Below, in pieces: positions 1 to 27,705 of a DNA stretch of 32,000 nt. Location of the stretch: the NCBI RefSeq assembly GCF_000010625.1, contig NC_010296.1, positions 4,020,001-4,052,000 of the forward strand. Reading direction: 5' to 3'. Position numbers and translations under genes: made by a program. Position 1 is the stretch's first letter; the number at the start of each line of letters is the position of its first letter. This DNA is from Microcystis aeruginosa NIES-843. GTDB taxonomy: Bacteria; Cyanobacteriota; Cyanobacteriia; Cyanobacteriales; Microcystaceae. A model generated the notes under the pieces. It ran no database searches. It was not told the DNA's origin and saw only the letters and a list, made by a program, of their open reading frames with translations.

Positions 1-112
1 TTTAGGAAGTCAATTACCTAATTTTCAGGGAAAAAGTCCCCCCAATTTTCCCCCCGCTCACTCCCAGGCCCGGCACTGTTTGATCTCAAAAAGGCCTAAA
101 GATATTATCCAA
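1..112 (+). mobile_element. Partial copy of the ~210-bp MITE family (left end cut by window edge, right TIR missing)
   Basis: Aligns with the internal part of the copies at 15920-16131, 24910-25116 and 27257-27470 (caattacctaattttcagggaaaaagt...ttttcccccc...cactcc...). Similarity ends near 112, where a heptamer array begins. Confidence 0.7.
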
Positions 113-117
113 TTACC

Positions 118-190
118 GATGACTGATGACTGATTACTGATCACTGATTACTGATTACTGATTACTGATTACTGATTACTGATTACTGAT
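118..190. repeat. Tandem heptanucleotide array GATNACT, ~10 copies (STRR-like; reverse complement carries the CAGT core)
   Basis: Direct reading: gatgact gatgact gattact gatcact then gattact x6. Confidence 0.9.
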
Positions 191-287
191 TGTGGTTGTT
201 AATTTTTACCTTAAATGTCGGTTTGAAGGAACCCTCGGTTTCACTGACGAGATGAAAAACCGACCAGCATAAAACAGCGAAGCACAG

Positions 288-644
288 CTAATATTCATGG
301 GAGTCTTGATTCTCGACATATTTCTTAAGTTGGTCTATTGTGACACCGCCACAACTAGCCACAAAATATACCCCTGTCCACAAAATTCTCTTATCTTGAC
401 CATATATCTCTTTCAAGTGGTCTGAAAAGTTATCCCACATCAGCTGGCAAGAAGTTGATTTTAAGTTAGCGATTAGACTACTTAACAGCTTATGGGGTGG
501 GTAAGTTAAAAGAATGTGAACATGGTCTGATTCTCCGTTAATCTCTATTACCTTCGCCTCCCATTTCTCAGCTATGTTTTGAAAAACTATTCTCAAAAAC
601 TCTAAATGCTTTTTCTGGAATACTTTCCGATGATATTTTGTCAC
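288..644 (-). CDS. tnpA: IS200/IS605 Y1 (HUH) transposase TnpA; annotated GTG start probably not the ancestral start
   Basis: HUH motif in SDHVHILL and catalytic-Tyr context QLKKYVENQ. The frame stays open upstream to 734 and encodes ...KTNYFKTCRATFNLTVHIVLV-TKYHRKVF. So the conserved first strand (HIVLVTKY) lies upstream of any ATG/GTG/TTG codon. An ATA codon at 705-707 sits where an ATG would be expected. Confidence 0.75.
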   Translation of the reverse strand: MTKYHRKVFQKKHLEFLRIVFQNIAEKWEAKVIEINGESDHVHILLTYPPHKLLSSLIANLKSTSCQLMWDNFSDHLKEIYGQDKRILWTGVYFVASCGGVTIDQLKKYVENQDSHEY

Positions 645-761
645 AAGAACTATATGTACGGTGAGATTAAAAGTGGCTCTACAAGTCTTAAAATAATTAG
701 TTTTTATGCTCTTGAAATTTTGTACTACGAATTGCTATAATCATGGTATAACACATTGAGA

Positions 762-852
762 TGAACGTAGGTTGGGTTGAAGCATGAAACCCAACGCCTG
801 CTCATGTTACGCTACCGCTAACCCATCCTACAAATAATTGTGCCTCCCTACT
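762..852. repeat. 91-bp small repeat inserted in the tnpA-tnpB spacer, bracketed by 13-bp direct repeats
   Basis: TAACACATTGAGA occurs at 749-761 and again at 853-865. The insert carries imperfect inverted termini gtaggttgggtt / aacccatcctac and an internal hairpin gttgggtt-gaagcatga-aacccaac. Its right 51 bp (804-854) recurs at 22466-22516 with 1 mismatch. Confidence 0.5.
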
Positions 853-875
853 TAACACATTGAGAGGTCGAATCG

Positions 876-2057
876 ATGCGAGTCATAGAGTTTAAGTTAA
901 AAGTCAATCCTTCCCAAAAGATAGCCATTCAAGAGGCTATCAGGGTGGGACAGTTTATTCGGAACAAATGTCTAAGATTTTGGATGGACTCTACTAAAGA
1001 AGATCAGGTTAACTATGCTACTTTGTGTAGGCTAACTACCGAATTATCTAATATTCCTGAATTTTCTTTTGTTGGTAAACTCAACTCTATGGCTCGTCAA
1101 GCAAGTGCCGAAAGAGCTTGGTTTTCTATATCCCGTTTCTACGACAATTGTCAAAGGGGTTTGGCAAAAAAAGGCTATCCTAAATTCAAAAAATTTTCAA
1201 GGTCTGTCGAGTACAAAACTTCTGGTTGGAAACTAACAGAAGACAAAAAGTTTATCCACATCACGGATAAAACAGGGATAGGAAAATTAAACCTAATCGG
1301 TACTTTTAACCGTGAGATTCTCGATAAATCCACTATCAAAAGAATCAGGCTTATTAAACGAGCCGATGGCTTTTATTGTCAATTTGTCTTAGACATTGAG
1401 AGAGTAGAAACCTTTGACTCTACAGGAAAAGAAGTAGGGATTGATTTAGGTTTAAACCATTTCTTAACTGACTCTAATGGGGATAAAATTGATAACCCAC
1501 GGTTTCTTCGTAAGTCGGAAAAAAGACTAAAAAAGGCTCAACGTAAACTCTCAAAGAAGAAAAAGGGAAGCCAAAAAAGATTAAAACAGAAATCTAAAGT
1601 AGCTCGCCTTCATCTAAAAGTTTCTAGACAGCGTAAAGATTTTGCCGTTAAGACAGCAAAAGCGTTAATCCAATCTAACGATTTGGTAGTCTATGAGGAC
1701 TTGAAGGTATCTAATATGGTGAAAAATCCTAAGCTTGCTAAATCTATTCAAGATGCGAGTTGGTCAATGTTCACCGATTGGTTAGACTACTTTGGGAAAA
1801 TACACGGGAAGTTTGTGGTAGCGGTGAACCCACAATATACTAGCCAACAATGTTCTAGTTGTGGTAATATTGTCAAGAAAACATTATCTGTAAGAACTCA
1901 TGTTTGTTCTTGTGGGTGTGTCTTGGATAGAGACGAAAACGCCGCTATAAACATTCTCGCACGGGCAAATACTGTCGGGCGGACAGAAATTCAAGCCCTC
2001 GGACAGACTACCCACTGTCTATTAGGTGAAAGCTTAGTAGATAAGGTAACTGGATGA
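876..2057 (+). CDS. tnpB: TnpB (IS605 OrfB-type RNA-guided RuvC nuclease), apparently intact
   Basis: 393 aa. Split RuvC residues lie in GIDLGLNH, VVYEDLKV and DRDENAAINI. Zinc-finger motifs are CSSCG and CSCGC. N-terminus MRVIEFKLKVNPSQ...IRNKCLRFWMD is typical of TnpB. Confidence 0.9.
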   Translation: MRVIEFKLKVNPSQKIAIQEAIRVGQFIRNKCLRFWMDSTKEDQVNYATLCRLTTELSNIPEFSFVGKLNSMARQASAERAWFSISRFYDNCQRGLAKKGYPKFKKFSRSVEYKTSGWKLTEDKKFIHITDKTGIGKLNLIGTFNREILDKSTIKRIRLIKRADGFYCQFVLDIERVETFDSTGKEVGIDLGLNHFLTDSNGDKIDNPRFLRKSEKRLKKAQRKLSKKKKGSQKRLKQKSKVARLHLKVSRQRKDFAVKTAKALIQSNDLVVYEDLKVSNMVKNPKLAKSIQDASWSMFTDWLDYFGKIHGKFVVAVNPQYTSQQCSSCGNIVKKTLSVRTHVCSCGCVLDRDENAAINILARANTVGRTEIQALGQTTHCLLGESLVDKVTG

Positions 2058-8910: not shown

Positions 8911-9020
8911 GAGGAAAAAAGAAAAATATTGACCAGATGAAAATGGGTAAAACACTACACCCCACACCCTGGGGCCAGGGTGCATCCCACATTTGCAGAA
9001 ATACCGACAATCAGCAATTA

Positions 9021-9124
9021 TACTAAATCCGTTGAGTATAGGCTACTTATGAAGATAGGCAAAAGGCACTCATGCAAAAGGCAAAAAGGGGGATAAATAA
9101 TCAGTCTTTAATAACCGGATTTAG
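9021..9124 (-). mobile_element. Small palindromic element (MITE-2 family, termini TACTAAATCCG / CGGATTTAG)
   Basis: tactaaatccg at 9021-9031 and ccggatttag at 9115-9124. The interior (gcaaaaggcactcatgcaaaaggcaaaaagggggataaataatcagtctttaataac) is the reverse complement of sequence in the 24639-24909 copies. Confidence 0.6.
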
Positions 9125-9430
9125 AATTATCAGTGACTCTTAAATTAGTACAAAAATATGAACAATCGCGTGTAAGCATCTCACAGTTAACCTAATGCGC
9201 TCCGGGGTTTGGGGGGGTAGAACCCCCCAAAAGCTTGGATTGAGTGATAAAACCGAAAGTAACGCCCAATTTTAGGAGAAAGTTTCCCCTGAAAAATCCC
9301 AAATTAGTAGATTTACAAAAATGATACCAAATCCCTTTTTAATAGTGTGATTAACTCTCAAGTTATGAATTGTTTCTCCCCACACCCCACACCCCACTAT
9401 CCTATACTTTTTAAACAGGATTTAGTATGA

Positions 9431-15817: not shown

Positions 15818-15919
15818 GAGAATTAAGAATGAGCATTAATCAATTAAATGCTCTATCTAAGGATTTTATGCAATTTTATGCCTATTTTTCTCATTTTTGA
15901 ACTCTCAAAAATTAATTAG

Positions 15920-16131
15920 GGTTTGCTGAAAAAGCTTTTCCTGGGGGCAGGGTGTGGGGTGTGGGGTGTGGGGTGTGGGGTTTTACCCATTTTCAGGGGG
16001 TCAATTACCTAATTTTCAGGGAAAAAGTACCTGAATTTTCCCCCCAATCACTCCAAAGGTCGGCACTTTTTGAGGGAAAACAAGTCTAAAAACCCTATCC
16101 AACAAGGTTTTTAGATTTATTCAGCAAACCC
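15920..16131 (+). mobile_element. MITE (~212 bp), complete, flanked by 6-bp direct repeat TAATTA
   Basis: Terminal inverted repeats gggtttgctgaa / ttcagcaaaccc. Internal (GGTGTGG)n G-run and a C-run. TAATTA occurs at 15914-15919 and 16132-16137. Confidence 0.85.
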
Positions 16132-16224
16132 TAATTAGGCAAGAACTCTATTAATAACTGGTCTAGAATCAATCTATCAAGAAATTGCTCAAATTACTTT
16201 AGTAATGAGAAACGGGACTAAATA

Positions 16225-16503
16225 ATGGCCGGAATTGAGGGATTGAGGATTAAAAATTATCGAGCGCTCAAGGATATAACTCTGGGCAAGTTATGGAATA
16301 CTCAAAATCGAGATTCTCTGACACCGATGACGGCCGTTATCGGCAAAAATGGTGTGGGAAAAAGCACAGTTTTTGATGCGTTCGGTTTTTTATCTGATTG
16401 TCTTAAAGGAGGAGTAGAAGAAGCTTGTGATGCGCGAGGTCGGGGCGGGTTTGAGCGTCTTCGTTCCCAGGGTCAGGAAGGAAGCATTGAATTTCAGATT
16501 TAC
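16225..16503 (+). pseudogene. 5' fragment (93 codons) of the ABC/AAA_21-like ATPase gene, duplicate of 22592-22870, cut by an IS605-family left end
   Basis: The first 92 residues match the 22592 gene except A2S and V49L. At the DNA level there are 3 substitutions. Similarity stops at TTAC (16500-16503), where the IS left-end sequence ctaaaatgtcgg begins. The remaining 27 codons of the ORF-track ORF read into IS sequence. Confidence 0.85.
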
Positions 16504-16727
16504 CTAAAATGTCGGATGAATGCCCCCGCTAAATTTTTCGACAAGATACTCACCTTTGCGGGGGATGAAATCCGACCAGGATATTAACTGCAAAGCACGA
16601 TTTTAATTCTACCATCTATGGGTAAACTGTGTTATAATTAAACTATCCAATGGTCGAGGATTGTTAAATGCTAGTCGTAGAAGCAAAGCTAAAAAACGGA
16701 ACACCAGAGCAATATCAGAAACTTGAT
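16504..16727 (+). mobile_element. IS605/IS1341-type remnant: left end plus the first ~20 codons of a tnpB
   Basis: The left end ctaaaatgtcgg matches 210-221. It has nested hairpins gtcggat...atccgac and cccccgc...gcggggg. An ATG at 16668 encodes MLVVEAKLKNGTPEQYQKLD, a typical TnpB N-terminus. Similarity is then lost. Confidence 0.7.
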
Positions 16728-16802
16728 GTAGTCCCTAAGTACCTAAGCAAAATTAATTACACATTTCGATAAAGCTTTTGCCTTTTGCCTATTGCCTTTT
16801 GC

Positions 16803-17213
16803 CTATCCTAACCAAGAAATTAATTTTGCACGACTACTTAATAATCCTAGCAGGGGAGAAAGGGCGATGACTGCCTCCAGGATTTTATCGCCCCGTTTCA
16901 TTAAGGATAATTGTTCATCGGCAGCCGACTCGAGGGCAAAGTGAAAAACCTCTGGATCTGGATTTTCTAAGCGCAGGGGAGCATAAAGATAGCTACCGAT
17001 GGGGTGATTGCGGGAATCTCTGGCGACTTTTGCCGCCACATCCCAATTACGGATGGCCGATTCCATAATCCGGTTTAAAATCTGGCCTTCACTGAGGAGG
17101 GTGCGACTCCAAAACCAAATTCGTTCGATAATAGTGCTAAGAGCTAAAATAGACAGAAAAAGCAGCGGCCACATAGCCACTCCGCCTTTTTGGATTAAAT
17201 CAGTTATACTCAC
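16803..17213 (-). pseudogene. exbB: Truncated MotA/TolQ/ExbB-family proton-channel gene (N-terminal ~125 aa only)
   Basis: GTG start with an aggaggga [37 protein letters not shown]...LSPLLGLL is ExbB/TolQ-like. The frame ends where GTVxG and the last two TM helices should follow. No exbD/tonB partner is adjacent. Confidence 0.6.
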
Positions 17214-18005
17214 GAGTTGTTTTGTCCCTCCTGGGCGATCGGGTAATGATTATAGTTTAAGGATTATAGTTTAAGATTTAGCTTAATCGATTGACATTTA
17301 TAGTTCTCACGCTGACTTAGAATACAGGATGAGATGGGGCTTTTCAAGAGGCCTGAAGATGTGAATGGTGAACCTCAGTCCAGTCAAAAAATTCCTCGAA
17401 AAATAACCTCTAGACGACTCTGATCGGGGGTTTTTACAAAAATTTAGGGTTTAGCGGGTTTATACAAAGTTTCCCTCAGCAAACTATCCCTAACCCCTTT
17501 TCTAGATAGGAAAAGAGATTAGGGAATAACTGAACTTCCCCCGTATAAATATACTAGCTATGGCTCAAAGTCTTACAGAGCCTGAGTTAAAGCAATGTAA
17601 TACTAATAAACTACTGGGTACAAACTCCTGAAATCCTTACGCAGACAGGGTTTGAGGCAAAATTTTTCAAATTTGACCCTTCGACCATTATAGCTTGTTT
17701 CCAGGCAGAAAACCATCAAAAACATGGCTACCGAGGGAATCGCTGACTCTAGAGATTAATGACACCATCTGTTACAATAAGGTTAGCGATCACTATACAG
17801 CCAACTCTACGGAATCGCTCTACTCTAGATACAGTCAACGGTACAGCCATTTTCAAAGGGAAAATGTACCCAGTAGCGTCTTTTCAATTTTTTCTGAGAA
17901 GCTCCAGGCAGTAAGGGTTTTGTTAATTTTTTAGTATTTCTGTATGGGGGAAGTCCAGGAATAACTGTCCTTAGTCAGTTTCAGGATTAATTTCTAATCC
18001 TTAAT

Positions 18006-21000
18006 CTAGATGACAACGATACCAGTATTAACGAGAGTCGGCGCACCGGTGAGAGTGGCGATTTGAAGAGCGACGGAAGTAGCACCGCTACCGTCAGCAT
18101 CAAAGAACAAAGCGCCATTAGTGGTGTTATAAATAAATCGTTGCGTGGCTGTGGTCGCTGCCGTGATTCCTGCACCAGAGATAAATTGAGCGGCAGCCAG
18201 GGCGCCGACGGCGAGTCCACCACCAAAACCAGTTCTAGAGACGGCAATCTGATCGTTTTGAGCGCTGACAAAATCAATCGAGTCAATGCCTTCATTAGGA
18301 TTGTTGAAAATGAATTGATCGGCATTACCACCGCCGGTGAGGGTATCATTTCCTAGACCACCGGTGAGGGTATCGTTGCCAGCACCGCCATTGAGGAGAT
18401 CTGCCGATACTCCTCCCAACAAACGGTCATTACCGCTACCCGCAGTCACTTGAAACCGCTCGATGCCTGTGTAAGCAACTTGATGACCAGTAGTGGAGAT
18501 GACAGTAGCGGTTTGGCTGATATTAGTGGTGAGGCTAGAGTAGTCAACGATCAGAAGGTCGATGCTACCGCCACCGTCAGCAAAGTCAGTACCTAGACCT
18601 GTGCTGAGGGTGTCATTACCGTCACCACCGATCAGGCTGTCATTCCCAGCCCCCCCATTGATACTATCATTGCCGTTATCACCGATCAGGGTATCGTTGC
18701 CGGCGTTACCGATTAGAGTATCATCTAGAATCGCACCAAATAAGCTATCGTTGCCGCTACCCCCAGTCAAGTTAAAGCGCTCGATACTGGTGTAATTAAC
18801 CTGATTGCTAGTGGTAGATATCTGATTGATTGTCTGAGTGATATCCGTAGTCAGAGTGGAGTAGTTAACGATCAGTAAATCACCGAGGTTTCCTCCTCCG
18901 TTTACTGTGTCAATCCCTAAGCCGGAGCTAATAGTGTCATTACCGTTGCCCCCAAGAAGAGAATCGTTACCATCACCACCACTAATGCTGTCATCCCCGT
19001 CATTACCGTTGAGGGTATCATTACCGGCATTACCGATTAGGGTGTCATTTAAGCTACCACCGAACAGGTTATCGTTGCCGCTACCCCCAGTCAAGTTAAA
19101 TCTTTCAATATTTCTGTAGGAAATACTGTTACCACTGGTGGAAAAAGAGGTGGTAAATTGACGGATATCGGTGGTTAAACCTGAGTAATCGACTTCTAAG
19201 ACATCAATACCGCTACCACCATCCACGTCATCAGAGCCGCGACCGGGATTAAGGGTATCATTGCCCGCTCCCCCTTGTAGGTTGTTATTAGCCGAGATGA
19301 GGCTTGTGAAGCGAATGCGATCGCTGCCGACACCGCCGGTGACATTGGTGAAAAACTCGATACCTCTGATACTGGTGCCGTCGGGTAGGTTTAGGTCTGC
19401 TAAAGTAGTGCCGTCAATGGTGAGATTGAGAGCAGTAGCAACAACGGAGAAATCGGCATCAACAAGAGTATCAATCCCCGCACCACCATCGACCGTATCG
19501 ACACCGCCACCCTTGGTAATTAGGTCGTTGTTATCACCACCATTAATGTTGTCATCCCCGTCATTACCGTTGAGGGTATCATTACCGGCATTACCGATTA
19601 GGGTGTCATTTAAGCTACTACCGAACAGGTTATCGTTGCCATTACCCCCAGTCAGGTTAAATCTTTCGATATTTCTGTAGGAAATACTGTTACCACTGGT
19701 GGAAAAAGAGGTGGTAAATTGACGGATATCGGTGGTTAAACCTGAGTAATCGACTTCTAAGACATCAATACCGCTACCACCATCCACGTCATCAGAGCCG
19801 CGACCGGGATTAAGGGTATCATTGCCCGCTCCCCCTTGTAGGTTGTTATTAGCCGAGATGAGGCTTGTGAAGCGAATGCGATCGCTGCCGACACCGCCGG
19901 TGACATTGGTGAAAAACTCGATACCTCTGATACTGGTGCCGTCGGGTAGGTTTAGGTCTGCTAAAGTAGTGCCGTCAATGGTGAGATTGAGAGCAGTAGC
20001 AACAACGGAGAAATCGGCATCAACAAGAGTATCAATCCCCGCACCACCATCGACCGTATCGACACCGCCACCCTTGGTAATTAGGTCGTTGTTATCACCA
20101 CCATTAATGTTGTCATCCCCGTCATTACCGTTGAGGGTATCATTACCGGCATTACCGATTAGGGTGTCATTTAAGCTACTACCGAACAGGTTATCGTTGC
20201 CATTACCCCCAGTCAGGTTAAATCTTTCGATATTTCTGTAGGAAATACTGTTACCACTGGTGGAAAAAGAGGTGGTAAATTGACGGATATCGGTGGTTAA
20301 ACCTGAGTAATCGACTTCTAAGACATCAATACCGCTACCACCATCCACGTCATCAGAGCCGCGGCCAGGGTTAAGGGTATCGTTACCCGCTCCCCCTTGT
20401 AGGTTGTTATTAGCCGGGATGAGGCTTGTAAAGCGGATGCGATCGCTGCCAAGAACACCAGTAATGTTGGTGAAAAACTCAAAACCTTTAATGTTAGTGC
20501 CGTTTGGCAGGTTGAGGTCCGCTAGGGTTGTGCCATCAATGGTGAGATTGAGAGCAGTAGTAGCAACGGAAAAATCGGCATCAACAAGAGTATCAATCCC
20601 CGCACCACCATCGACCGTATCGACACCGCCACCCTTGGTAATTAGGTCGTTGTTATCACCACCATTAATGTTGTCATCCCCGTCGCCACCGTTGAGGGTA
20701 TCATTACCGGCATTACCGATTAGGGTGTCATTTAAGCTACTACCGAACAGGTTATCGTTGCCATTACCCCCAGTCAGGTTAAATCTTTCGATATTTCTGT
20801 AGGAAATACTGTTACCACTGGTGGAAAAAGAGGTGGTAAATTGACGGATATCGGTGGTTAAACCTGAGTAATCGACTTCTAAGACATCAATACCGCTACC
20901 ACCATCCACGTCATCGAAGCCGCGACCGGGGTTAAGGGTATCATTGCCCGCTCCCCCTTGTAGGTTGTTATTGGCTGGGGTTGTGCTGGTCAAACGAAGG

Positions 21001-21587
21001 CGATCATTCCCAAGACCCCCAGTGACATTGGTGAAAAACTCAAAACCTCTGATTCTCGTACCATCGGGTAGGTTGATATCGGCTAGGGTCGTGCCATCAA
21101 TGGTGAGATTGAGAGCAGTAGTAGCAACGGAAAAATCGGCATCAACAAGAGTATCAATCCCCGCACCACCATCGACCGTATCGACACCGCCACCCTTGGT
21201 AATTAGGTCGTTGTTATCACCACCATTAATGTTGTCATCCCCGTCATTACCGTTGAGGGTATCATTACCGGCATTACCGATTAGGGTGTCATTTAAGCTA
21301 CTACCGAACAGGTTATCGTTGCCGCTACCCCCAGTCAAGTTAAATCTTTCGATATTTCTGTAGGAAATACTGTTACCACTGGTGGAAAAAGAGGTGGTAA
21401 ATTGACGGATATCGGTGGTTAAACCTGAGTAATCGACTTCTAAGACATCAATACCGCTACCACCATCCACGTCATCAGAGCCGCGGCCAGGGTTCAGGGT
21501 ATCGTTACCATCTAAACCTTGCAGTGTGTCCCGGTCTATAGTGCCAATGAGCAGGTCATCGTTTGGTGTTCCGACAAACAAGGGCAT
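18006..21587 (-). CDS. Large RTX-type (hemolysin-type calcium-binding repeat) protein, probable type I secretion substrate
   Basis: 1193 aa. Many GGxGxD nonapeptide repeats (GGAGNDTL, GNAGNDTL, GGDGNDS). No N-terminal signal-like segment. The C-terminal ~100 aa are non-repetitive (...ALFFDADGSGATSVALQIATLTGAPTLVNTGIVVI). Built from 187-aa tandem modules. Confidence 0.9.
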   Translation of the reverse strand: MPLFVGTPNDDLLIGTIDRDTLQGLDGNDTLNPGRGSDDVDGGSGIDVLEVDYSGLTTDIRQFTTSFSTSGNSISYRNIERFNLTGGSGNDNLFGSSLNDTLIGNAGNDTLNGNDGDDNINGGDNNDLITKGGGVDTVDGGAGIDTLVDADFSVATTALNLTIDGTTLADINLPDGTRIRGFEFFTNVTGGLGNDRLRLTSTTPANNNLQGGAGNDTLNPGRGFDDVDGGSGIDVLEVDYSGLTTDIRQFTTSFSTSGNSISYRNIERFNLTGGNGNDNLFGSSLNDTLIGNAGNDTLNGGDGDDNINGGDNNDLITKGGGVDTVDGGAGIDTLVDADFSVATTALNLTIDGTTLADLNLPNGTNIKGFEFFTNITGVLGSDRIRFTSLIPANNNLQGGAGNDTLNPGRGSDDVDGGSGIDVLEVDYSGLTTDIRQFTTSFSTSGNSISYRNIERFNLTGGNGNDNLFGSSLNDTLIGNAGNDTLNGNDGDDNINGGDNNDLITKGGGVDTVDGGAGIDTLVDADFSVVATALNLTIDGTTLADLNLPDGTSIRGIEFFTNVTGGVGSDRIRFTSLISANNNLQGGAGNDTLNPGRGSDDVDGGSGIDVLEVDYSGLTTDIRQFTTSFSTSGNSISYRNIERFNLTGGNGNDNLFGSSLNDTLIGNAGNDTLNGNDGDDNINGGDNNDLITKGGGVDTVDGGAGIDTLVDADFSVVATALNLTIDGTTLADLNLPDGTSIRGIEFFTNVTGGVGSDRIRFTSLISANNNLQGGAGNDTLNPGRGSDDVDGGSGIDVLEVDYSGLTTDIRQFTTSFSTSGNSISYRNIERFNLTGGSGNDNLFGGSLNDTLIGNAGNDTLNGNDGDDSISGGDGNDSLLGGNGNDTISSGLGIDTVNGGGNLGDLLIVNYSTLTTDITQTINQISTTSNQVNYTSIERFNLTGGSGNDSLFGAILDDTLIGNAGNDTLIGDNGNDSINGGAGNDSLIGGDGNDTLSTGLGTDFADGGGSIDLLIVDYSSLTTNISQTATVISTTGHQVAYTGIERFQVTAGSGNDRLLGGVSADLLNGGAGNDTLTGGLGNDTLTGGGNADQFIFNNPNEGIDSIDFVSAQNDQIAVSRTGFGGGLAVGALAAAQFISGAGITAATTATQRFIYNTTNGALFFDADGSGATSVALQIATLTGAPTLVNTGIVVI
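18950..21510. repeat. 561-bp (187-codon) tandem repeat, about 4.5 copies, inside the RTX gene
   Basis: Antisense ORF-track entries 19261-19680 and 19822-20241 have identical translations at a 561-bp offset. Entries 20404-20802 and 20944-21363 are near-identical at further 561-bp steps. The protein repeats NDTLNPGRGSDDVDGGSGIDVLEVDYSG... five times. Boundaries are approximate. Confidence 0.9.
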
Positions 21588-21620
21588 AATTCCACCTCAT
21601 CTTGTGCAAAAATGTTAAGT

Positions 21621-21734
21621 TACGCGATGTGCAACTAATTTTTAGTCCTTGATTTATAAGGGTTTCAGAAACCAGAAAAATCGGTGAGTAGTCTGAAATC
21701 CTGATTTGATCGTTGTAAGTTGCACATCGCGTTA
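21621..21734. repeat. 15-bp perfect inverted repeat in the RTX gene upstream region
   Basis: acgcgatgtgcaact (within 21621-21636) and agttgcacatcgcgt (within 21718-21734). Both arms also lie next to gttaagtta. The intervening sequence is ~80 nt. Confidence 0.7.
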
Positions 21735-21830
21735 AGTTACCTTAGGGAACAATTGCCCGTTTAATTTCTGAGCCACTTGTGGGTACATCCTATCATAAGT
21801 TTGCGACGAAAAAACAGTATTTTATTTTAG

Positions 21831-21901
21831 TCCCACATTCCGCACCCTAGTAGTTGAAATCAAAAGTTGCTCTAGCCCTTGTATCCCACATTCCGCACCC
21901 T
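21831..21901. repeat. Two perfect 18-bp direct repeats tcccacattccgcaccct
   Basis: The copies lie at 21831-21848 and 21884-21901, 53 bp start to start. They sit between the RTX gene and the IS1634-like fragment. Confidence 0.8.
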
Positions 21902-22053
21902 CAACTGTCACATAAGCTGTCCCCCTCCAGAGACTTGAGTAAAAATACTTAGCTGGTGAAGGTTTTCTCGGTGGCCGCTAGGGGGGTCTTGAGACCCCTA
22001 ATTATGAAAAAATAGGAATTGTTGCAAAACCTAGGCGAGTGGACTGTTCGACC

Positions 22054-22465
22054 ATGAATCAATCAACAGAAATTGAAGTCAAAAATCTAGACCATCTGGG
22101 ATTAGTAGCTGGAATTATCGATGAAATAGGAATCGTTGAAATTATCAACGAACAAGTCTCAATTGAGCGAGGAGAAATTGTCACAGCGGGGCAAGTAGTG
22201 AAAGCAATTATCCTGAACGGATTGGGATTTGTCTCCGGGGCCTTGTATTTATTTCCTCAATTTTTTGAAGATAAAGCAACCGAACATCTGCTGGGAGAGG
22301 GCATCGAACCCAAGCACTTGAATGATGATAAAATTGGTCGAGTAATGGACAAACTTTATCAACTTAATGTTTCGGTCATTTTCCTACTCATCAGTTTAGC
22401 CGCCGTGAAAAAATTTGGTGTAGCAACCGAGAATTGCCATTTAGATTCGACTTCTCTATCAGATT
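22054..22465 (+). pseudogene. N-terminal fragment of an IS4/IS1634-superfamily transposase (DUF4277-type N-terminus)
   Basis: MNQSTEIEVKNLDHLGLVAGIIDEIGIVEIIN...HLDSTSLS resembles the N-terminal third of IS1634-type transposases. Similarity ends near 22465, where the 51-bp repeat shared with 804-854 begins. No DDE region follows. Confidence 0.6.
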
Positions 22466-22516
22466 ATGTTACGCTACCGCTAACCCATCCTACAAATAAT
22501 TGTGTCTCCCTACTTA
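22466..22516. repeat. 51-bp copy of the right part of the small repeat at 762-852
   Basis: atgttacgctaccgctaacccatcctacaaataattgtg[t]ctccctactta has 1 mismatch against 804-854. Confidence 0.8.
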
Positions 22517-22591
22517 GAATCAGTCTATACTATATATTCTCCGGGGAGAAATTGCTTAGATTGCTTTAGTAATGAGAAACGGGACTAAATA

Positions 22592-23875
22592 ATGTCCGGA
22601 ATTGAGGGATTGAGGATTAAAAATTATCGAGCGCTCAAGGATATAACCCTGGGCAAGTTATGGAATACTCAAAATCGAGATTCTCTGACACCGATGACGG
22701 CCGTTATCGGCAAAAATGGTGTGGGAAAAAGCACACTTTTTGATGCGTTCGGTTTTTTATCTGATTGTCTTAAAGGAGGAGTAGAAGAAGCTTGTGATGC
22801 GCGAGGTCGGGGCGGGTTTGAGCGTCTTCGTTCCCAGGGTCAGGAAGGAAGCATTGAATTTCAGATTTATTACAAAGAAGATTACAATTCCCGACCAATT
22901 ACCTATGAATTAGCTATTGATCTAGATACCGATAATAGACCTTATGTAAAAAAAGAAAGACTCAGACAGAGAAGAAAAGGTCAAAAGACCGGATGGCCTT
23001 TTTCATTTTTACTCCTCGATGAGGGGAAAGGAATCGTCTGGAAAGGAGAAGAAGAAGGGAAACAAGTAGAAGAAGGTCAAGACCATTTTGATTTACTTAA
23101 GTTAATAGAAAAAATTAAACGAGGAGATTATGAGGATGGGGGGGAGTTAGTGGAACTGAATGATAAGCGCAAACTAGGAATTGCTACGTTAGGTTCTCTC
23201 AAACAGCATCCGAGAATTTCCCTATTTCGGAGATTTATTGAGGGATGGTATCTCAGCTATTTTACTCCCGATGCGGCCAGAAGTTTGCCCCTAGCCGGAC
23301 CCCAGAAACATCTGAATATTCATGGAGATAATCTCGGTAATGTGGTGCAGTTTATGGAAAGAGAGCATTCCAAGAAATTTCAGAATATACTTAATAGTAT
23401 TTCTCGTAAGATACCGGGTATAGAAAAAATTAGCACCGAAAAAAGTCCCGATAATCGACTACTATTAAAATTTAATGATCGGGGATTCCAAGACCCATTT
23501 TATGTACAGCAAATGTCCGATGGTACTTTAAAAGTATTCGCCTATCTCTTACTGTTAGAAGACCCTTCCCCACCGCCATTTATCTGTATTGAAGAGCCAG
23601 AAAACGGCTTATACCATAAACTATTAGAAACCTTGGCTCAAGAATTTAGAAAACACGCCACAGGACAGAGAGGACGTTCTCAAATTTTTATCACCACCCA
23701 TCAACCTTATTTTGTTGATGCTCTCCAGCCGGAAGAAGTTTGGATTCTGGAAAAAGGTGATGACGGGTTTTCTCGGATTAAACGGGCCAGTGACAATCCC
23801 TTAATCAAGAATCTCGTCTCAGAAGGATTGCCCCTTGGTAGTCTTTGGTATAGTGATTACTTAGATGAGAGATAA
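22592..23875 (+). CDS. ABC-type (AAA_21/AAA_15-like) ATPase, first gene of a two-gene module
   Basis: 427 aa. Walker A GKNGVGKST, signature-like QMSDGT, Walker B/D-loop PFICIEEPENGLYH and H-loop FITTHQP. The insertion between Walker A and the signature is as in OLD/AriA/PtuA-type ATPases. Confidence 0.85.
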   Translation: MSGIEGLRIKNYRALKDITLGKLWNTQNRDSLTPMTAVIGKNGVGKSTLFDAFGFLSDCLKGGVEEACDARGRGGFERLRSQGQEGSIEFQIYYKEDYNSRPITYELAIDLDTDNRPYVKKERLRQRRKGQKTGWPFSFLLLDEGKGIVWKGEEEGKQVEEGQDHFDLLKLIEKIKRGDYEDGGELVELNDKRKLGIATLGSLKQHPRISLFRRFIEGWYLSYFTPDAARSLPLAGPQKHLNIHGDNLGNVVQFMEREHSKKFQNILNSISRKIPGIEKISTEKSPDNRLLLKFNDRGFQDPFYVQQMSDGTLKVFAYLLLLEDPSPPPFICIEEPENGLYHKLLETLAQEFRKHATGQRGRSQIFITTHQPYFVDALQPEEVWILEKGDDGFSRIKRASDNPLIKNLVSEGLPLGSLWYSDYLDER

Positions 23876-24551
23876 GGTCATGTACTTTGAAATTTTGGTT
23901 GAGGATTTGTCGGGAAAAAAAGCACTTGATATTCTAATTCCTAAGATTATTGACATGAATGCAGGTCATACATTTAGGGTTCATTCCTATAAAGGCAGTG
24001 GTCATATTCCCAGAGACTTACAGTCTGTTTCCGATCCTAGTAAGCGGATTCTTCTTGAGCGACTACCTAAACTGATTCAAGGATATGATAAAACTTTTTC
24101 CAGTTGCGCTGATAATTATGCTGCTGTGCTGATTGTGGTTTGCGATCTGGATAATCGATGTTTTCGGGAATTTCGACAGGAATTAAGCAATTGTCTGGAA
24201 AAATCTGCTATCAAATCCCAAATTTACTTCTGTATTGCTATTGAAGAAGGAGAAGCTTGGTATTTAGGTGATATTAATGCCATAAAAATTGCTTATCCCC
24301 ATGCCAAAAGTGCTATCTTGGATTCCTATATTAATGATAGTATCTGTGGTACTTGGGAAAAACTGGCAGATGCTATATACAGAGGTGGAGCGAAACAATT
24401 ATCTAAGTTAGGTGGCGCTTCTGTGGGTCAAGAGAAAACAGTCTGGGCAGAAAATATTTCTCCTCAGATGAATGTGGATATTAATCGATCGCCCAGCTTT
24501 GGCTATTTTCGGGATAAACTACGTCATCTCAGTCAGGAAGAATCAAGATAA
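23865..24551 (+). CDS. Toprim-like small protein (DUF4276-like by size and motifs), second gene of the module
   Basis: 228 aa (223 aa if it starts at the ATG at 23880: MYFEILVED...). It has an N-terminal acidic residue in ILVED, a DxD in LIVVCDLDN, and a later acidic cluster AIEEGEAWYLGD. It overlaps the ATPase stop by 11 nt, or sits 4 nt after it. The family call was not verified by search. Confidence 0.6.
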   Translation: MRDKVMYFEILVEDLSGKKALDILIPKIIDMNAGHTFRVHSYKGSGHIPRDLQSVSDPSKRILLERLPKLIQGYDKTFSSCADNYAAVLIVVCDLDNRCFREFRQELSNCLEKSAIKSQIYFCIAIEEGEAWYLGDINAIKIAYPHAKSAILDSYINDSICGTWEKLADAIYRGGAKQLSKLGGASVGQEKTVWAENISPQMNVDINRSPSFGYFRDKLRHLSQEESR

Positions 24552-24638
24552 GTAATATTTTTTCAGGCTAAACTTTTAGGCATTTAAAATAATCGTCGAG
24601 AGCGGGGAATAGGCGATAGTGAGCAGTAAGCAGTGAGC

Positions 24639-24774
24639 CTAAATCCAGTTATTAAAGACCGATTATTTATACTCAATCCAGTTATTAAAAACTGATTATT
24701 TATTCCCTCTTTTGCCTATTGCCTATTGCCCATTGCCTGTCCTGATATGTAGCCTATACTCAACGGATTTAGTA
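24639..24774 (+). mobile_element. MITE-2 family copy with an internal duplication
   Basis: ctaaatcc...cggatttagta termini. aatccagttattaaaRacYgattatttat occurs twice. A ttgcct heptamer run is present. It matches 9021-9124 in reverse orientation. Confidence 0.6.
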
Positions 24775-24775
24775 T

Positions 24776-24866
24776 TAAGCTAAACGGCTTTTACTTCGGA
24801 TCACTGATATAGACTCCAAAAGGGTTATAGCTATTGGATCATGCAGGTTAAATGCCGTTTAGCTTA
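24776..24866. mobile_element. 91-bp palindromic mini-element with 13-bp TIRs
   Basis: taagctaaacggc (24776-24788) and gccgtttagctta (24854-24866) are perfect reverse complements. Confidence 0.6.
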
Positions 24867-24909
24867 TTCCCCCTTTTGCCTCTTGCATGAGTGCCTGTCC
24901 TGATAAGTA

Positions 24910-25116
24910 GGGTCTGCTGAAAAAGTTTTTCGGTGGGGGCAGGGTGTGGGGTGTGGGGTGTGGGGTTTTACCGGTTTTGAGGTGGCCAATTACCTAATTT
25001 TTAGGGAAAAAGTCCAGGAATTTTCCCCCTGATCACTCCCATACTTGGTACTTTTTGATTGACAAAAAGTCTAAAAGTCTTACCCAACAAGTTTTTTAGA
25101 TTTATTCAGCAAACCC
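24910..25116 (+). mobile_element. MITE (~207 bp), complete, flanked by 6-bp direct repeat TAAGTA, inserted into a MITE-2 copy
   Basis: TIRs gggtctgctgaa / ttcagcaaaccc. TAAGTA at 24904-24909 and 25117-25122. The flanks join to cctgtcctgataagtagcctatactcaagggatt, which matches the uninterrupted cctgtcctgatatgtagcctatactcaacggatt at 24737-24770. Confidence 0.85.
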
Positions 25117-25181
25117 TAAGTAGCCTATACTCAAGGGATTCAGTCTTAAATGCGATCGCCCTGCTCGTTCCTTCCCAGGGC

Positions 25182-25211
25182 TTGACATAAATCCCGCAAT
25201 AATGTTATGAT
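25182..25211 (+). promoter_or_regulatory. Sigma-70-type promoter candidate for rplJ-rplL
   Basis: TTGACA (25182-25187), an 18-nt spacer, then TATGAT (25206-25211). Confidence 0.5.
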
Positions 25212-25425
25212 GAGGGACTGGCTTAAGCCAAAGACAGCAGGTGCGAAACAGCTTAAATACCCTGCCGAGGTCAAAGCGAGAAAACAGCAGCCAAAAAGAC
25301 TAAAGAGAGATATTTTCTGTCTTGGTCGTGCCTGAACTGGATTCTCTCCACTCAACCCCGGCGCTACAAGGGGTTATTTTTGTGCCTGTGGAACCGGTCC
25401 CCCGCATACAGGAGGTGAACAAGGG
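25212..25425 (+). promoter_or_regulatory. Long rplJ 5' leader with a terminator-like hairpin (possible L10 leader/attenuator)
   Basis: The leader is about 200 nt. The hairpin aacccc (25354-25359) / ggggtt (25370-25375) is followed by atttttgtg. A strong SD acaggagg lies before the ATG at 25426. The L10-leader identity was not verified. Confidence 0.4.
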
Positions 25426-26737: not shown

Positions 26738-27253
26738 ATGCAGTGTCCTCATTGTCAGCATACCGATAGTCGCGTTTTAGAGTCCCGTTCCTCCGAAAAC
26801 GGTCAGAGCATTCGTCGTCGTCGTGAATGCTTACAGTGTAAATATCGCTTCACCACCTACGAGCGCATCGAATTCGTGCCGATCACGGTGATTAAAAAAG
26901 ATGGTAAACGGGAATCTTTTGATCGCTGCAAACTGCTGCGCGGTATCGTCCGCGCCTGCGAAAAAACCGGCATTCCCCCCTCAAGATTAGAGGCGATCGT
27001 CAATGATATCGAATCCCGTCTGCAGCAAGACTCAAAACGGGAGGTAACCAGTCAGGAGATCGGTCAATTAGTCCTAGAATATCTCCGACAAGAATCGGAA
27101 GTGGCCTATGTGCGCTTTGCTTCGGTTTACGGCAATTTTCAGGGAATTAGAGACTTTATCGCCGCTTTAGCGCTGCTGCAATCCTCCGAAATCGAACGCG
27201 CTCATCCTTCTTGGTCTCAAGTGGAAGAAGCCAGCGTGATCACCTCGTCTTAA
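26738..27253 (+). CDS. nrdR: Transcriptional repressor NrdR (zinc ribbon plus ATP-cone)
   Basis: 171 aa. [17 protein letters not shown]...[20 protein letters not shown] is the NrdR signature. Confidence 0.95.
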
Positions 27254-27256
27254 ATA

Positions 27257-27470
27257 GGCTTTGCGGCAAAAAGTTTTTCCTGGGGGCAGGGTGTGGGGTG
27301 TAGGGTGTAGGGTGTAGGGTTTTACCCATTTTCAGGGGGTCAATTACCTAATTTTCAGGGAAAAAGTCCTGAAATTTTCCCCCCGATCACTCCAATAGGC
27401 GGTACTTTTGGATTTCAAAAAGGTCTAAAAGTCTTATCGAACAATGTTTTTAGATTTATTCAGCAAACCC
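27257..27470 (+). mobile_element. MITE (~214 bp), complete but with a degenerate left TIR, flanked by 6-bp direct repeat TAAATA
   Basis: TIRs ggctttgcggcaa / ttcagcaaaccc. TAAATA at 27251-27256 and 27471-27476. The left copy contains the nrdR stop codon (27251-27253). Confidence 0.85.
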
Positions 27471-27705
27471 TAAATAGTTCCCGATTCAGTTATAATTAGG
27501 ATCCCTTGTGCTATTTAAAGCCCAAGCTCTGGTTAGATTCTTAAGAGTCATTCTTGAGGCGGATTGCCTGCAAGAAAGCCGGATGCGGCAGTTCATCCCC
27601 TAGGCCCTGCCTAGGAACTAAATTGGGAGGCATCTCCTTTATTTAGAAACTGTACATCACATAGGAGGAAAAACCTACGGAAATTCCGAGGCCCAAACAA
27701 CGTAC

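Follow-up and report, generated by a model that had tools for sequence, protein, structure and literature searches.

An intact HEC-01 gene pair in Microcystis aeruginosa NIES-843: an ABC-type ATPase and a Toprim-like DUF4276 protein as a candidate anti-phage system

The window analysed here is a 32,000-nt stretch of the Microcystis aeruginosa NIES-843 genome (contig NC_010296.1, positions 4,020,001 to 4,052,000). On its plus strand lie two adjacent genes, A and B, and as judged from their sequences the pair is an intact Microcystis copy of HEC-01, which PADLOC lists as a candidate anti-phage system of two genes, and not a new kind of system. HEC-01A (22592..23875) encodes a 427-aa ABC-type ATPase of the AAA_21/AAA_15 kind, identified by its open reading frame (ORF), Pfam, PADLOC and motif conservation. 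HEC-01B (23880..24551) encodes a 223-aa DUF4276 protein of the Toprim superfamily, a predicted nuclease identified by Pfam, PADLOC, residue conservation and AlphaFold2 modelling. At the junction (23873..23882, plus strand) the TAA stop codon of A is followed by the four nucleotides GGTC and the ATG of B. An original prediction, made by a model from the letters of this DNA and a list of its ORFs, had placed the two ORFs at 22592..23875 and 23865..24551, where both are indeed found, and had described their junction as either an 11-nt overlap or a 4-nt gap. Both readings are present in the sequence. Starting from the upstream ATG at 23865, the B ORF (23865..24551, plus strand) encodes 228 aa and overlaps A by 11 nt; starting from the ATG at 23880 it encodes 223 aa and begins 4 nt after the end of the A stop codon at 23875. 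The true start is very probably at 23880, because B homologues start at MHFEILVED in the alignment, the GenBank record (AP019314.1, GCA_003945305.1) annotates the 223-aa product, and the short gap recurs among the 80 related loci described below. The gap is therefore favoured over the overlap, and by its layout the junction is a tightly coupled operon arrangement.

Pfam AAA_21 matches A with an E-value of 6e-49 over the complete profile (1-304/304), AAA_15 matches too, and the PADLOC model for HEC-01A (PDLC04182) gives 6.5e-200 and 662 bits, with residues 1-426 on profile 1-402/406. A Microcystis protein recorded as 'AAA family ATPase' has 100% identity to it. All ATPase motifs named in the original prediction are found in A, and in 75 homologues from other genomes the key residues of each are 100% conserved. 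More specifically, these are G40, K46 and S47 of Walker A (GKNGVGKST, residues 40-48, nt 22709-22735), S309, D310, G311 and T312 of the signature motif (QMSDGT, residues 307-312, nt 23510-23527), E334 and E335 of the Walker B/D-loop region (FICIEEPENGLYH, residues 330-342, nt 23579-23617) and H370 of the H-loop (ITTHQP, residues 367-372, nt 23690-23707). As in other ABC ATPases, an intact signature motif implies that the protein dimerises as an ATP sandwich. Variation within the family is confined in A to approximately residues 150-190; a variable insert in such ATPases has been proposed to set specificity (Payne et al., bioRxiv 10.1101/2024.01.29.577857).

B matches Pfam DUF4276 along nearly the whole profile (1-191/192), its score of 31.0 bits exceeding the gathering cut-off of 30.2 by a small margin. 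The PADLOC model for HEC-01B (PDLC04205) matches at 1.4e-94, with residues 6-221 on profile 1-211/213, and HEC-01 models are the only ones in PADLOC that B matches. Pfam (AAA_21 and DUF4276) and PADLOC (HEC-01A and HEC-01B) thus agree with the domain calls made originally, an ABC-ATPase and a DUF4276 protein. Homologues of B fall into 3,482 clusters, with 705 representatives at the 50% identity level. DUF4276 is matched by all 55 relatives scanned against Pfam; of the other Pfam families, only DUF3226 (5), RloB (4) and OLD-like_TOPRIM (4), all of which we take to be Toprim-clan families, are matched by two or more relatives. A Pfam scan (E <= 10) of the B family consensus and the most divergent members found nothing beyond DUF4276.

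The three stretches of B that had been picked out as Toprim-like, ILVED, VVCDLDN and IEEGEAW, are all in the sequence. Conservation of the E and DxD residues among homologues had been set in advance as a check, and it was measured over 55-97 full-length representatives down to 32% identity (223-aa numbering). E8 (nt 23901-23903) is invariant, D89 and D91 of the DxD motif (nt 24144-24152) are each at least 90% conserved, and in E122-E123-G-E125 (nt 24243-24254) E125 is invariant and E123 at least 90% conserved. W127 and K186 are likewise invariant among the relatives. Compared with the protein of another Microcystis strain (L083), B differs at 3 of 223 residues, including H2Y. A truncation of the B C-terminus by the downstream repeat insert was considered and rejected, the C-terminus being identical in Microcystis strains without the insert.

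Two AlphaFold2 models of B were made, the first with a predicted local distance difference test score (pLDDT) of 76.6 and the second, from 97 sequences, with a pLDDT of 89.7 and a predicted template modelling score (pTM) of 0.88. Modelled B has the topology β1 (residues 2-8), α1, β2 (31-38), α2, β3 (82-89), α3 and β4 (114-120), followed by an all-helical domain (125-222). In the model E8 ends β1, DxD lies at the end of β3 and E122-E125 come after β4. In both motif and modelled topology this layout of strands and residues follows the canonical order of Toprim domains.

When the B profile was run genome-wide, 556 loci were confirmed, the best 80 of which (L001-L080) were examined. The loci span cyanobacteria, Desulfobacterota, Poribacteria, Acidobacteriota, Latescibacterota, Methanosarcinaceae, ANME archaea and others. 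In 80/80 an A homologue of 57-83% identity lies directly upstream of B on the same strand, in most cases with the same short gap; conservation of the pair, another check set beforehand, is therefore strict. The ATPase is better conserved across phyla than its nuclease partner (57-83% versus 50-65% identity in the same genomes), the reverse of what one might expect from a fast-evolving phage sensor. A third conserved partner gene was looked for and rejected: among 1,034 flanking ORFs the largest neighbour cluster is present in 8 of the 80 loci. Nearness to known defence genes, also a check, was found for a subset of the relatives. In 7/80 loci the pair is flanked by HmaB, a DUF1156 methylase, on one side and HmaC, a DUF499 ATPase, on the other, HmaA being close by, and in 2-4 loci it lies between PglX and BrxHI of BREX. 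A PADLOC scan of immediate neighbours gave strong defence matches at approximately 15-20% of loci; most copies, including all cyanobacterial ones, stand alone. Going by these genomic contexts, the module is a self-contained two-gene unit that is repeatedly found inside or beside methylation-based defence systems. In L070 (10660-13647) and L058 (10661-13678) the gene right after the HEC-01B homologue encodes a UvrD/GajB-like helicase, and a member of the same helicase cluster occurs in L021 (18731-20638, minus strand), approximately 8 kb downstream of the pair and on the opposite strand. The three-gene order of L070 and L058 looks like a split Gabija or class-2 OLD.

In other Microcystis the gene order is chlH/cobN - A - B - rplJ - rplL, without an insertion sequence (IS) element or RTX gene, and chlH-A-B-rplJ is found in 6 of the 8 informative Microcystis rplJ contexts. 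The window carries in addition a strain-specific insertion of 6.0 kb (16503..22514), which is absent at this site in other Microcystis and contains an ExbB fragment, an RTX-like gene and an IS1634 fragment; strain L083 served as the reference for its breakpoints. On either side of the insertion lies one copy of a direct duplication of approximately 355 bp, made up of the 77 nt upstream of A and the first ~278 nt of A. The right copy (22515-22869) contains the start of intact A and the left copy holds a truncated duplicate of the A 5' end (16164..16502, plus strand). The two are 98% identical over 323 nt (16180-16502 versus 22547-22869) and 93% identical over 100 aa at the protein level; the ORF of the truncated copy (16225..16587, 120 aa) matches the N-terminus of AAA_21 only. 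Such a duplication pattern is expected of single-crossover (Campbell-type) integration or duplicative recombination, not of transposon target-site duplication.

The insertion and its flanking duplication explain two features of the original prediction, the 'island' setting and the second, destroyed 5' copy of A 6.4 kb away. The mobile-DNA-rich island is real in this strain; as a property of the module it does not hold, and from comparison with the other strains the island is a strain-specific accident and not evidence on module function. The IS1634-like fragment described directly upstream of the pair is an N-terminal fragment of an IS1634-family transposase (22039..22569; DUF4277 2.5e-41, NF033559 profile 2-142 of 483). 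The RTX-like/HemolysinCabind repeat protein (18006..21587, minus strand, 1193 aa) has sub-threshold NCBIfam calcium-binding repeat and RTX matches and is built of long near-identical internal repeats of approximately 180 aa each. At its right edge the insertion has a 51-nt sequence (22466-22516, inside the tail of the IS1634-fragment ORF) that recurs with 98% identity at 804-854, just upstream of a gene for TnpB, an IS200/IS605-type RNA-guided endonuclease (876-2057). This sequence may be a shared element end or the terminus of a miniature inverted-repeat transposable element (MITE).

Downstream of the pair, the B-rplJ spacer (24552..25425) contains nested MITE-like repeats that are also found elsewhere in the window, in agreement with the MITE nest noted originally. 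A 340-bp MITE-like insert at 24778-25116, flanked by 33-nt direct repeats, is absent from L083. One intergenic MITE-like family has copies at 24904-25123, 15913-16138, 27251-27477 and 11-112, and a second at 24669-24775 and 9020-9127 (minus strand); copies in the two families are 77-85% identical. The spacer also has a near-consensus sigma-70-type promoter-like site at 25182-25211 (11/12 matches, extended -10 TG), 215 nt upstream of rplJ, in a scan uncalibrated for cyanobacteria. In scans for promoters and terminators, shuffled sequence yielded at least as many sites as the real sequence. The whole window was without Rfam matches, so that no known RNA element, including an L10 leader, was found beside the pair.

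Two Microcystis genomes are without chlH-A-B upstream of rplJ (L093, CP134413.1, and L094, BFAC01000001.1; both 1-1682, minus strand). In its place they have a resolvase and TnpB element, UbiD, and another pair, in which an AAA_15/AAA_21 ATPase of 376 aa, different from A, accompanies a DUF3226 protein of 190 aa. DUF3226 is also the most frequent weak secondary match of the HEC-01B family. Judged by domain content, Microcystis therefore holds a second kind of ABC-ATPase/Toprim-like pair, AAA_15/AAA_21 with DUF3226.

The original prediction read the pair as a split OLD/PARIS/AbiL-like candidate defence system made up of an ABC-ATPase with its Toprim-like partner, and Pfam, PADLOC and the literature support this. 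It also implied that the system and the partner family were uncharacterised and left open whether the pairing had been catalogued. It has been, as HEC-01, so the implied novelty fails; DUF4276 too is already placed in the Toprim superfamily. HEC-01 (Hma-embedded candidate 01, PADLOC-DB v2) was described in a 2024 preprint by Payne et al. (bioRxiv 10.1101/2024.01.29.577857), in which an ABC ATPase is associated with a TOPRIM protein and the two are embedded in Hma systems, HEC-01B having a metal-binding site in common with the Toprim domain of Burkholderia OLD (BpOLD). The PARIS paper (PMC11464382) used DUF4276 in a tree of AAA15/21 defence ATPases and adds AbiL and MADS3-4 to the ABC-ATPase/TOPRIM systems, alongside OLD and PARIS. 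The Menshen paper (PMC12065111) places DUF4276 and RloB in the Toprim superfamily, with E and DxD conserved, and gives Mad4 as a DUF4276 homologue. In PADLOC itself, PDLC04144, named HEC-01B, matches the ATPase (7e-94), and PDLC04143, named HEC-01A, matches the DUF4276 protein (3.5e-11); one HEC-01 subtype seems to have had its A and B labels exchanged.

With HEC-01 the window pair shares its two proteins and their order, an AAA_21 ABC ATPase first and a TOPRIM-like DUF4276 protein second, each matching its HMM over the full length, and the arrangement as adjacent same-strand genes; relatives of the pair lie between HmaB and HmaC, the setting in which the system was first described. The window pair differs in being without Hma (helicase-methylase-ATPase) embedding, standing alone between chlH and rplJ; Hma is the discovery context of HEC-01 and not its detection rule. 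HEC-01 is closely allied to MADS3-4. MAD3 is an AAA_15/21 ATPase and MAD4 a DUF4276 homologue (PMC12065111), and A matches mad3 models of PADLOC (8.6e-26) and NCBIfam (1.6e-27). However, A scores 96.7 bits against a cut-off of 420 for the MAD3 equivalog (NF047739), so the relation is distant; B has no mad4 model match at E <= 1, and the other mad genes (the methylase and the mandatory MAD6-8) are not among the window ORFs. Both mad3 and mad4 are required for MADS defence.

PARIS is the best-understood mechanistic analogue, with an ATPase scaffold that frees a nuclease on detection of a trigger. It has the same two-gene split, an AAA_15/21 ABC ATPase (AriA) with a Toprim-superfamily effector (AriB, a DUF4435 nuclease), and the generic AriA (AAA_21-type) PADLOC model matches A at 8.1e-45. 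B is nevertheless a DUF4276 protein, no DUF4435 match was found at E <= 1 in B or 55 relatives, and AriA structures match the profile of A at the P-loop only (E 0.12). AbiL is likewise a two-gene system, an ABC ATPase (AbiLi) with the Toprim-like AbiLii/RloB; AbiLi models match A at 2.2e-26 with partial model coverage, and RloB is a weak secondary match in 4/55 B relatives, whereas B itself is DUF4276 and not RloB. OLD (P2 Old, classes 1-3) and GajA combine an ABC ATPase with a Toprim nuclease that has a conserved E and DxD metal site, and the profile of A weakly matches the OLD structure 6p74 (1.1e-3). In OLD and GajA the ATPase and Toprim parts are fused in one polypeptide, whereas the window pair is two genes. 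Window B has no OLD-like_TOPRIM (PF20469) match at E <= 1, and 4/55 relatives have weak ones, the best at 0.0028. The UvrD/GajB-like helicase right after B in L058 and L070 is a likeness to class-2 OLD and Gabija, while no helicase (GajB) was found in the window.

Taken as a whole, the best explanation of the locus, and one that we consider probable, is a HEC-01 member in which an ABC-type (SMC/OLD-like) ATPase controls a DUF4276-branch Toprim nuclease in candidate anti-phage defence. The copy of this strain may be expressed. By analogy with OLD, Gabija, PARIS and AbiL, A and B are predicted to form a complex. The ATPase would di- or oligomerise via its Walker A and signature motifs and restrain or position the Toprim protein. 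A phage-derived cue would then alter the ATP cycle; in the analogous systems this role is played by an anti-restriction protein or by a disturbance of DNA repair. The Toprim protein, freed or activated in this way, would bind Mg2+ through E8, D89, D91, E123 and E125 and cut nucleic acid, possibly DNA, the substrate of OLD and Gabija, or tRNA, that of PARIS. Phage replication would be halted, possibly at the cost of the cell.

Several observations weigh against this interpretation. A HEC-01 representative tested by Payne et al. in E. coli gave no protection against any phage tested (bioRxiv 10.1101/2024.01.29.577857), while a representative from a cold seep is reported to have made E. coli B resistant to one or more of the phages T7, T5 and T4 (Nature Communications 2026, PMC12881386); the published phenotypes conflict, and neither study used the Microcystis pair. 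Homologues are rare in phage records (1/50,697) and plasmid records (4/72,556). No known defence gene was found adjacent to the pair in the window, where the neighbours are chlH, rplJ/rplL and other housekeeping genes. For the Toprim fold of B, Foldseek against PDB with both models and against BFVD with the first model gave nothing significant, and no Toprim protein ranked among the 50 best matches. The top matches were generic α/β folds (vWA, flavodoxin, Arf, Ku), none of them significant. When B was aligned by hhalign with the single sequence of P2 Old, ILVED paired weakly with LLVEG (E 0.033, probability 1.5%), a non-significant alignment, though placed at the β1 Glu where one is expected. 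The P2 Old C-terminus as a query returned only four near-identical proteins, no phage homologue beyond P2 and no PDB sequence at E <= 10. In profile searches against PDB sequences, A relatives gave P-loop-level matches only and B relatives matched nothing, so that a solved structure of a detectable relative was found for neither protein. The Toprim-like character proposed originally for B is therefore upheld in residue order and topology and was not recovered in the structural search; the fold assignment rests on topology, residue conservation and literature, and no structural proof is claimed. The remaining points concern this particular copy: B has Y at position 2, where H is nearly invariant, the insertion has left only 77 nt of native sequence before intact A, and in these 77 nt no promoter-like site above chance was found in a scan uncalibrated for cyanobacteria.

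These last points could also mean that the pair belongs to HEC-01 as described and that its copy in this strain is silent or decaying, the insertion having cut the intact operon off from its native promoter. The native upstream region left of the insertion (16503-22514) now drives the truncated 120-aa copy, which would fit silencing, as would the missing promoter-like site and H2Y. Against this, neither ORF is shortened and no catalytic residue has been lost, B departs from the sequence of other strains at the 3/223 residues only, and a separate sequencing run contains an identical A-B pair. Transcripts might also start within the 77 nt or read through from the IS fragment. We regard a silent copy as unlikely, and it is compatible with the family assignment.

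If the pair is a genus-wide, vertically kept fixture at chlH-A-B-rplJ, Microcystis HEC-01 may sense a conserved host-side perturbation or may have been domesticated for housekeeping nucleic-acid processing. The conservation of A from cyanobacteria to archaea (57-83% identity) could mean either. This is a speculative idea, and we think it rather improbable.

Another view, to which we give only a slim chance, is that the module serves repair or chromosome maintenance and not immunity, as a SMC/RecF-like ATPase with a Toprim protein, comparable to RecF/RecR or SbcC/SbcD, and is a stable chromosomal fixture in Microcystis. A does weakly match SMC_N, RecF, Rad50 and SbcC and shows unusually high conservation between phyla; in most informative Microcystis contexts the pair sits at a conserved site between housekeeping genes, and it is nearly absent from phages and plasmids. 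However, the strongest matches are to defence models (HEC-01, AriA, AbiLi, mad3) and not to repair proteins, and relatives lie inside Hma and BREX operons. Near-identical pairs are patchily spread over bacteria and archaea, which indicates the horizontal transfer typical of defence genes; the two Microcystis genomes without the pair at this site and the protection given by one HEC-01 representative (PMC12881386) also speak for defence. Finally, a toxin-antitoxin-like addiction module, with B as toxic nuclease and A as ATP-dependent antitoxin that mainly stabilises the surrounding DNA and does not sense phages, is very improbable: the Pfam description of AAA_21 as 'putative AbiEii toxin, Type IV TA system', the PDB entries that call AriA an 'antitoxin' and the tight coupling and strict co-inheritance of the pair fit a toxin and its neutraliser, but the syntenic chromosomal site in Microcystis and the rarity on plasmids oppose a plasmid-addiction role, and the idea differs from an ATPase-controlled defence nuclease in emphasis more than in mechanism, PARIS itself being toxin-antitoxin-like.

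The discovery value of the locus is small, since the pair, its domains and its kinship to OLD, PARIS, AbiL and MADS3-4 are already in PADLOC and three papers. What this copy adds is a stand-alone, genus-syntenic cyanobacterial example of HEC-01. HEC-01 is widespread over bacterial and archaeal phyla and is found in most of the Microcystis genomes examined, and these are harmful bloom formers in which phage defences are ecologically relevant. If Microcystis HEC-01 does sense a host-side perturbation or has been domesticated, it would be a tractable model for the triggering of split ABC-ATPase/Toprim systems and a possible factor in how bloom-forming cyanobacteria resist cyanophages.

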